Shown: positions 62,013 to 62,100 of the stretch, one piece after another
How positions within the stretch are numbered: position 1 is the stretch's first letter
Layout: every line of letters begins with the position of its first letter
Assembly: GCF_041886205.1 (NCBI RefSeq)
Contig: NZ_CP169029.1
Reading direction: 5' to 3' (one strand)
Length of the DNA: 64,000 nt
From: Escherichia coli
GTDB taxonomy: Bacteria > Pseudomonadota > Gammaproteobacteria > Enterobacterales > Enterobacteriaceae
The notes under the pieces: model-generated
What the model saw: only the letters and a program-made list of their open reading frames with translations
Database searches by the model: none
What the model was told of the DNA's origin: nothing
Translations under genes and position numbers: made by a program

Positions 62013-62100
62013 TTTTGAACATTTCAGGCTATTTTTCTCGCGTTAGGTTCCCGCACAGGTTCCCACGTTTTATGGGAACCCGAAATAACGAGGTCGTGTA

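Follow-up and report, generated by a model that had tools for sequence, protein, structure and literature searches.

The dusA–int gap and its repeats

The window, that is, the whole stretch of 64,000 nucleotides of Escherichia coli DNA that was analysed, ends with the genes dnaB, qor, pspG and dusA (60975–62012, minus strand), followed by a divergent integrase gene, int (62101–63198, plus strand), and a DinI-like gene. The int product is a dusA-associated tyrosine integrase of 365 aa, in which a Pfam Phage_integrase match covers residues 189–346 (E=7.5e-21) and the alignment shows the invariant R..H..R..Y region to be conserved. With the integrase of the Salinivibrio phage SMHB1, placed in the dusA-associated family by its authors (PMC8537503), it shares 56% identity.

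The gap between dusA and int measures 88 bp (62013–62100), as reported in the first-pass annotation, and by scanning the window we found there the GGTTCCC triad that it had described, with two copies in direct orientation (62046–62052 and 62058–62064, plus strand) and one inverted (62074–62080, minus strand). The direct copies belong to the 8-mer AGGTTCCC, which occurs at 62045–62052 and 62057–62064 with a spacing of 12 bp, and the inverted one reads GGGTTCCC at 62074–62081 on the minus strand, ending 19 bp before the int ATG. We refer to these candidate arm-type integrase sites as P'1, P'2 and P'3; counted from the first base of the crossover core described below, they start at +136, +148 and +165. 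The last two copies also lie within an inverted repeat (GGTTCCCA/TGGGAACC) having arms of 8 bp each (62058–62065 and 62073–62080) and a 7-nt loop.

Over the 64-kb window GGTTCCC shows no excess (6 copies seen, 6.75 expected). Three of the six copies crowd into 35 bp, and GGTTCCC is the sole 7-mer forming a triad inside 36 bp anywhere in the window. Because 20% of Markov-simulated windows hold at least one such 7-mer triad, the case for the triad rests on its location and on the comparison with relatives, which gives strong evidence; the window sequence by itself leaves its significance unproven, and on sequence alone it is weak.

A T-rich block, GGCTATTTTT, was observed at 62027–62036, about 10 bp upstream of P'1, and akin blocks (GCTATTTTT, CGTATTTTTT and GTATATTTTT) occupy the same place in many Enterobacterales loci. 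It may represent a −10-like element, a bend caused by an A-tract or a site for an accessory protein.

On the other side of int, a perfect −35 hexamer, TTGACA (63195–63200), overlaps the int stop codon, and two LexA-box-like CTGT-N8-ACAG sites (63201–63216 and 63229–63244) are located just upstream of the DinI-like gene (63260–63508). Three CTGT-N8-ACAG sites were seen in the window against 0.5 expected, and the region 63195–63244 looks like an SOS-controlled promoter for the phage dinI. The homology to the prophage of E. coli CX21 and to phage SKA5 ends at 63515, just past dinI, and the C-terminal part of a DDE transposase (weak Pfam DDE_Tnp_1 match) maps at the window end, at 63788–63997 on the minus strand. 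An insertion sequence may have interrupted or truncated the prophage of this strain. The window stops at 64000 and the homology to intact phage at 63515; the far arm of the attachment site was read in related complete prophage and phage genomes instead.

The empty site and the crossover

All of the complete E. coli genomes (n=5,426) carry dusA, and the gene of this integrase adjoins it in 738 (~14%). On comparison with the empty dusA locus of K-12, homology to the window is lost at ~62015, just beyond the dusA ATG. Within the aligned dusA stretch, identity is ~96% upstream of the core and ~82% from 61917 to the ATG. As for the alternative raised in the first-pass annotation, that the repeats are a native feature of the dusA promoter, it is ruled out by the unoccupied K-12 locus, from which both the triad and the entire gap are missing and whose 6.3 kb contain no GGTTCCC.

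In E. coli CX21, 99.8% identical to the window in this region, a complete 38.6-kb prophage begins at this integrase, and its far junction carries the displaced native 5' fragment of dusA. By comparing the window, K-12 and the CX21 far junction, the crossover core was located at TCGAGCAT (61909–61916), the identity block common to both prophage junctions, within the dusA codons Met-Leu-Asp. The same octamer is found in the attP of phage SKA5, Yersinia phage YeP2, SMHB1 and a Vibrio prophage element. Its flanks are similar at both junctions.

The crossover thus falls inside dusA, and the triad, 128 bp away on the phage side, is not the junction itself. The first-pass annotation had placed the triad at an island boundary; the triad is phage DNA, and so are the whole 88-bp gap and the ~34 first codons of dusA. 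Specifically, the segment 61917–62012 (minus strand) is a phage-borne surrogate dusA 5' end of about 32–34 codons, ATG included, which makes up the part of the P' arm from the core to the arm sites and which recurs as the same fragment in the SKA5 attP.

Since the junctions, compared with the empty site, put TCGAGCAT in dusA, the element can be assigned to the dusA-specific family described in PMC4482086, whose members insert in the dusA 5' end and bring a surrogate 5' end. Like the dusA-associated integrases of Farrugia et al. 2015 (PMC4482086), the present one is divergently encoded at the dusA 5' end that its element replaces. In addition, as in the elements of PMC4482086 and PMC8409611, the crossover lies in a conserved dusA segment and a PrtN/RdfN homologue is encoded across attP. 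In the CX21 prophage this is a 93-aa protein matching Pfam PyocinActivator (E=3e-23), the gene of which is outside the window.

The layout of the repeats on both arms of attP

The first-pass annotation had suggested a search for the motif at the far end of the island, which we carried out in the whole CX21 prophage. GGTTCCC and AGGCTCCC appeared there 11 bp apart, about 50–60 bp from the far junction; specifically, GGGTTCCC lies at −62 and AGGCTCCC at −51 from the core. Phage SKA5, whose integrase is 99% identical, presents the uninterrupted attP, in which the P-arm copies AGGTTCCC and AGGATCCC are separated by aat and followed, after 43 bp, by TCGAGCAT, the surrogate dusA 5' end and the P' copies. 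Its P' arm reads AGGTTCCC gcac AGGTTCCC acgttttat GGGAACC, with the int ATG 20 bp further. The attP of the E. coli phages holds two copies on one arm (−62 and −51) and three on the other (+136, +148 and +165) over a span of ~230–240 bp, and their motif differs from the core.

Between P2 and the core, a sequence one mismatch away from the IHF consensus occurs at −33 in the CX21 prophage (18368–18380 in the numbering of locus L003), SKA5 and YeP2; the IHF consensus was not found in the attP of SMHB1 or of the Vibrio element. The −33 sequence is a weak candidate for an accessory bending site.

Two small reverse-strand genes, to which no function was assigned, were observed in the CX21 prophage between the RdfN-like gene and the P arm (17350–18253 in L003 numbering). 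SKA5 has other genes at this slot, and since the two phages carry different genes there, the place directly beside attP can be regarded as a variable cargo slot.

Outside these E. coli phages, a layout of two direct copies per arm, in some cases joined by the inverted one, was found in eight other phage or prophage attP sites, each having its own motif. In YeP2 (integrase 68% identical), copies map at −61, −50, +136, +148 and, inverted, +164, and all five read AGCACCCC. SMHB1 carries AGTCTCCC at −61, +136 and +147, together with a two-mismatch copy, AGTACCCC, at −49, while the Vibrio prophage element carries AGTACGNA at −62, −51, +136 and +147. Among these two Vibrionaceae phages and the Yersinia phage the positions match to within 1 bp, and the motif is each lineage's own. 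At both conserved P-arm positions each phage has its own motif, except that a second copy can be degenerate, as in SMHB1, and 16 cross-scans with foreign-lineage motifs returned only three stray one-mismatch matches.

Klebsiella phage Kp4882-1 shows the same 2+2 layout at −59, −48, +127 and +139, counted from the record end, with the motif AGCACCCC (also given as AGNACCCC). No dusA-like TCGAGCAT core was seen at the ends of this record, which suggests that Kp4882-1 has another integration target and the same arm specificity. The integrases of Kp4882-1 and of two Raoultella loci (L143 and L144) are 52–53% identical to the E. coli one, yet their loci have the Yersinia-type AGCACCCC motif; these integrases share with the Yersinia type the N-domain signature GKY.(Y/H)REN.

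With integrases of about 35% identity, Pseudomonas phage H66 and Ralstonia phage GP4 use TTGCTAC and Burkholderia phage DC1 uses GGTACAT. On the P arm there are two direct copies in H66 and two in GP4, and in DC1 the second one is weaker, as judged by eye; on the P' arm the direct copies number two in GP4 and DC1, with a spacing of 12 bp, and several in H66. One or two inverted copies stand beside the int start in all three. The layout is mostly kept, therefore, in Yersinia, Klebsiella, Salinivibrio, Vibrio, Pseudomonas, Burkholderia and Ralstonia relatives, with the inverted copy missing in some. A copy like P'3 is present in Enterobacterales relatives and in the Pseudomonas, Burkholderia and Ralstonia phages; it is absent or degenerate in some lineages, and was not found in the attP of SMHB1, the Vibrio element or Kp4882-1.

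The repeat upstream of int was also scanned in 77 loci, one genome per species, from dozens of genera and with 52–99% identity. A perfect 8/8 direct repeat with a spacing of 10–13 bp was present within 90 bp upstream of int in 53 of them, as compared with 6 of 1540 shuffles and 2 of 702 coding windows, and in most of the 77 the tandem repeat is spaced by 11–12 bp, as are P'1 and P'2. The repeats follow the consensus [A/G]G-NNN-[C/A]CC, the middle of which is lineage-specific. A Glaciecola MAG (L137) shows, in the 90 bp upstream of int, a mirrored arrangement with GGGATACA twice in tandem and then GTATCCC once, all three copies being flipped in orientation relative to the other loci. That the triad is a functionless chance cluster, a reading to which the 20% of simulated 64-kb windows with some 7-mer triad would lend itself, is hardly conceivable against an architecture that is conserved over dozens of genera, with sequences that change and positions that stay fixed.

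Within E. coli, the gaps of 72 near-identical loci have substitutions only in spacers, loop and flanks, and none in the heptamers. A lineage of 89% identity, represented by two viral contigs (L087 and L089), has the triad cGGGTTCCC actc AGGCCCCC atacaaa TGGGAACC, in which P'2 has diverged by two bases to AGGCCCCC and the outer two sites are kept, P'3 being GGGAACC. The scan of viral contigs gave nearly only near-identical E. coli loci and informs on variation within the species, not on diversity.

These comparisons bear on the hairpin suggested in the first-pass annotation. The inverted repeat of the last two copies is real, but as a conserved structure it does not hold, the pairing being broken or absent in several lineages. 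An RNA or DNA hairpin formed by P'2 and P'3, for example in the 5'-UTR of int or dusA transcripts, would have an 8-bp stem at its disposal, and the minus-strand RNA reaches −21.9 kcal/mol (z=−2.7; z=−3.8 for the YeP2 equivalent). The plus-strand (int) RNA fold is however unexceptional (z=−0.4), no T-run terminator was found, the E. coli lineage of 89% identity (AGGCCCCC facing GGGAACC) and Xenorhabdus have lost full complementarity, the inverted copy is lacking in Kp4882-1, SMHB1 and Vibrio, and the motif also occurs in direct repeats, which are unable to pair. We consider this explanation very unlikely and reject the RNA hairpin on the grounds of the int-strand fold and of the pairing that is not conserved across lineages. 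With the change to AGGCCCCC the stem is lost and the motif class retained; what is conserved are the three sites, not the stem, and the hairpin potential is a by-product of an inverted binding site.

Proposed integrase recognition and control at the dusA junction

The first 58 codons of int (62101–62274, plus strand) are predicted to encode an arm-binding N-terminal domain made of three strands followed by a helix. In the AlphaFold2 model of residues 1–72 (pLDDT 84), strands span residues 2–10, 16–26 and 29–38, and a helix residues 41–58. Unrelated folds give similar scores, and neither Foldseek with this model nor sequence-profile searches of the domain returned a significant match. Across 60 loci, the distance between motifs followed the distance between residues 1–58 when the catalytic domain was controlled for (partial Mantel r=0.556, p=2e-4), and the reverse partial test gave r=−0.18 (p=0.99). 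The alignment columns best associated with the motif class are residues 23, 30, 45 and 35. This covariation supports, to a moderate degree, the recognition of the motif by the N-domain, and favours the integrase over the directionality factor as its reader.

The first-pass annotation had proposed either of these two proteins. The integrase is retained, with a motif that tracks its N-domain and lies on both arms, and the directionality factor is disfavoured, as RdfN similarity does not follow the motif. Binding by the PrtN/RdfN homologue would find an argument in the PrtN-family gene located across attP from int in the intact prophage, YeP2 and Kp4882-1, in the general use of tandem repeats by directionality factors, and in the work of Durand et al. 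2021, who demonstrated that dusA elements use RdfN as their excision factor (PMC8409611). The E. coli, YeP2 and Kp4882-1 versions of RdfN nevertheless stand at equal distances from one another (51–54% identity), though YeP2 and Kp4882-1 both use AGCACCCC, and in the partial Mantel test the motif follows the integrase N-domain specifically. Moreover, copies occupy the two arms and reach as far as the start codon of int, whereas the Xis sites of lambda are confined to one arm, between arm-type and core sites. For these reasons we judge it improbable that the repeats serve the directionality factor.

A further alternative is that the triad acts purely as a transcriptional operator or promoter for int and the replacement dusA, with no role in recombination. 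The triad lies in the sole non-coding stretch between the two start codons, and the element must bring a dusA promoter (PMC8409611); the 88-bp gap, in turn, must hold or adjoin both this promoter and that of int. Against this, a scan of 61800–62300 for consensus promoters and terminators found none, including no consensus sigma-70 promoter in the gap, the motif co-varies with the integrase N-domain, and copies at set distances from the crossover are also found across attP, where no neighbouring gene requires a promoter. An exclusively transcriptional role is accordingly quite improbable.

We read the triad as arm sites because it is phage DNA, because its motif is present on both arms at fixed positions with a lineage-specific sequence, and because this sequence covaries with the integrase N-domain. 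Most likely, it provides docking sites for the prophage integrase that inserts and excises at dusA; specifically, it would represent three arm-type integrase sites of attP, P'1 and P'2 in direct and P'3 in inverted orientation, in the int-proximal junction, a reading to which we assign a probability of roughly 0.8.

According to this arm-site model, a heterobivalent integrase would bind, through its small N-terminal domain, the AG-NNN-CCC sites P'1–P'3 as well as P1 and P2 on the other arm, while its core-binding and catalytic domains would act at TCGAGCAT in dusA, 128 bp away. DNA bending, probably by IHF, would join arm and core sites into the complex that inserts the phage, and the PrtN/RdfN-type directionality factor encoded across attP would then aid excision. 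From the comparisons above we infer the physical binding, the roles of the individual sites and the bending by IHF.

This picture is close to the lambda paradigm, in which high-affinity arm sites are linked to the core by a heterobivalent integrase, bending proteins acting in between (PMC4880445). As in the lambda attP (P1, P2, P'1, P'2 and P'3; PMC4880445), five short repeats unlike the core are split 2+3 over the arms, the span (~230–240 bp here) is alike, the core-binding and catalytic domains follow a small N-terminal domain, here predicted, and the element encodes an accessory directionality factor; IHF sites, here candidates, would be a further parallel. In contrast to lambda, neither the integrase N-domain nor the motif has detectable sequence similarity to its counterpart, P'3 is inverted relative to P'1 and P'2 while the P-arm copies are oriented like these two, and the directionality factor is of the PrtN/RdfN type and not Xis. 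Furthermore, int points outward from attP, its ATG lying 19–55 bp beyond the sites, and the long arm holds coding sequence, namely the surrogate dusA 5' end (~34 first DusA residues).

The integrase family is already published, as are its directionality factor, its 21-bp core repeats and the promoter newly supplied to dusA, these three being defined in PMC4482086 and PMC8409611. Arm-type sites are of an ordinary kind, but neither of these papers mentions them for this family, and a full-text literature search returned none for dusA elements. The SMHB1 authors had reported a single pair of 12-bp repeats and called its role 'undescribed' (PMC8537503), and the arm-site reading would explain this repeat, seen earlier and left uninterpreted.

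Bound integrase would probably repress int as well. Such self-repression, an autoregulatory operator being also among the suggestions of the first-pass annotation, is proposed on account of the position of the sites, which stop 19 bp short of the int ATG and occupy the place where the two divergent promoters, of int and of the replacement dusA, must be. In KplE1 the intS promoter overlaps the P' arm sites, resulting in negative autoregulation, which Panis et al. 2010 predicted for divergent int/target pairs and confirmed in examples (PMC2951348). The present locus resembles KplE1 IntS/attL in that int is transcribed away from the junction with arm-type sites, here candidate ones, immediately upstream, and its divergent int/target arrangement is of the class predicted to be autoregulated (PMC2951348); unlike in KplE1, the target is a protein-coding gene and not a tRNA gene. 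In a related dusA element a fragment with an active int promoter has been described, Pint being constitutively active, and dusA is expressed from the element (Durand et al. 2021, PMC8409611). We regard the odds that arm-site occupancy autoregulates int as about even.

In conclusion, the comparison adds to the published description a family-wide architecture with fixed positions and a co-evolving specificity. The full map of attP, with five arm sites, core and spacing, states the content of a minimal functional attachment site, and its layout provides a simple rule for locating both ends of dusA elements. This integrase family is found in many Proteobacteria, including Shiga-toxin phages and resistance islands, and matched pairs of N-domain and motif are candidates for orthogonal integration tools. 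More speculatively, the family could constitute a natural library of orthogonal arm-site specificities on a rigid attP scaffold (−62, −51, +136, +148, +165), where only a 3–4 base 'code' within AG-NNN-CCC and a few beta-sheet residues (~23, 30 and 35) would change together. The model also predicts that int, and possibly the rebuilt dusA, are controlled by integrase occupancy. Since the replacement dusA takes its start codon, and must also take its promoter, from the long arm, dusA expression could follow this occupancy; as an equally tentative part of the same proposal, the prophage's recombination state could thereby be linked to the expression of this host tRNA-modification enzyme.
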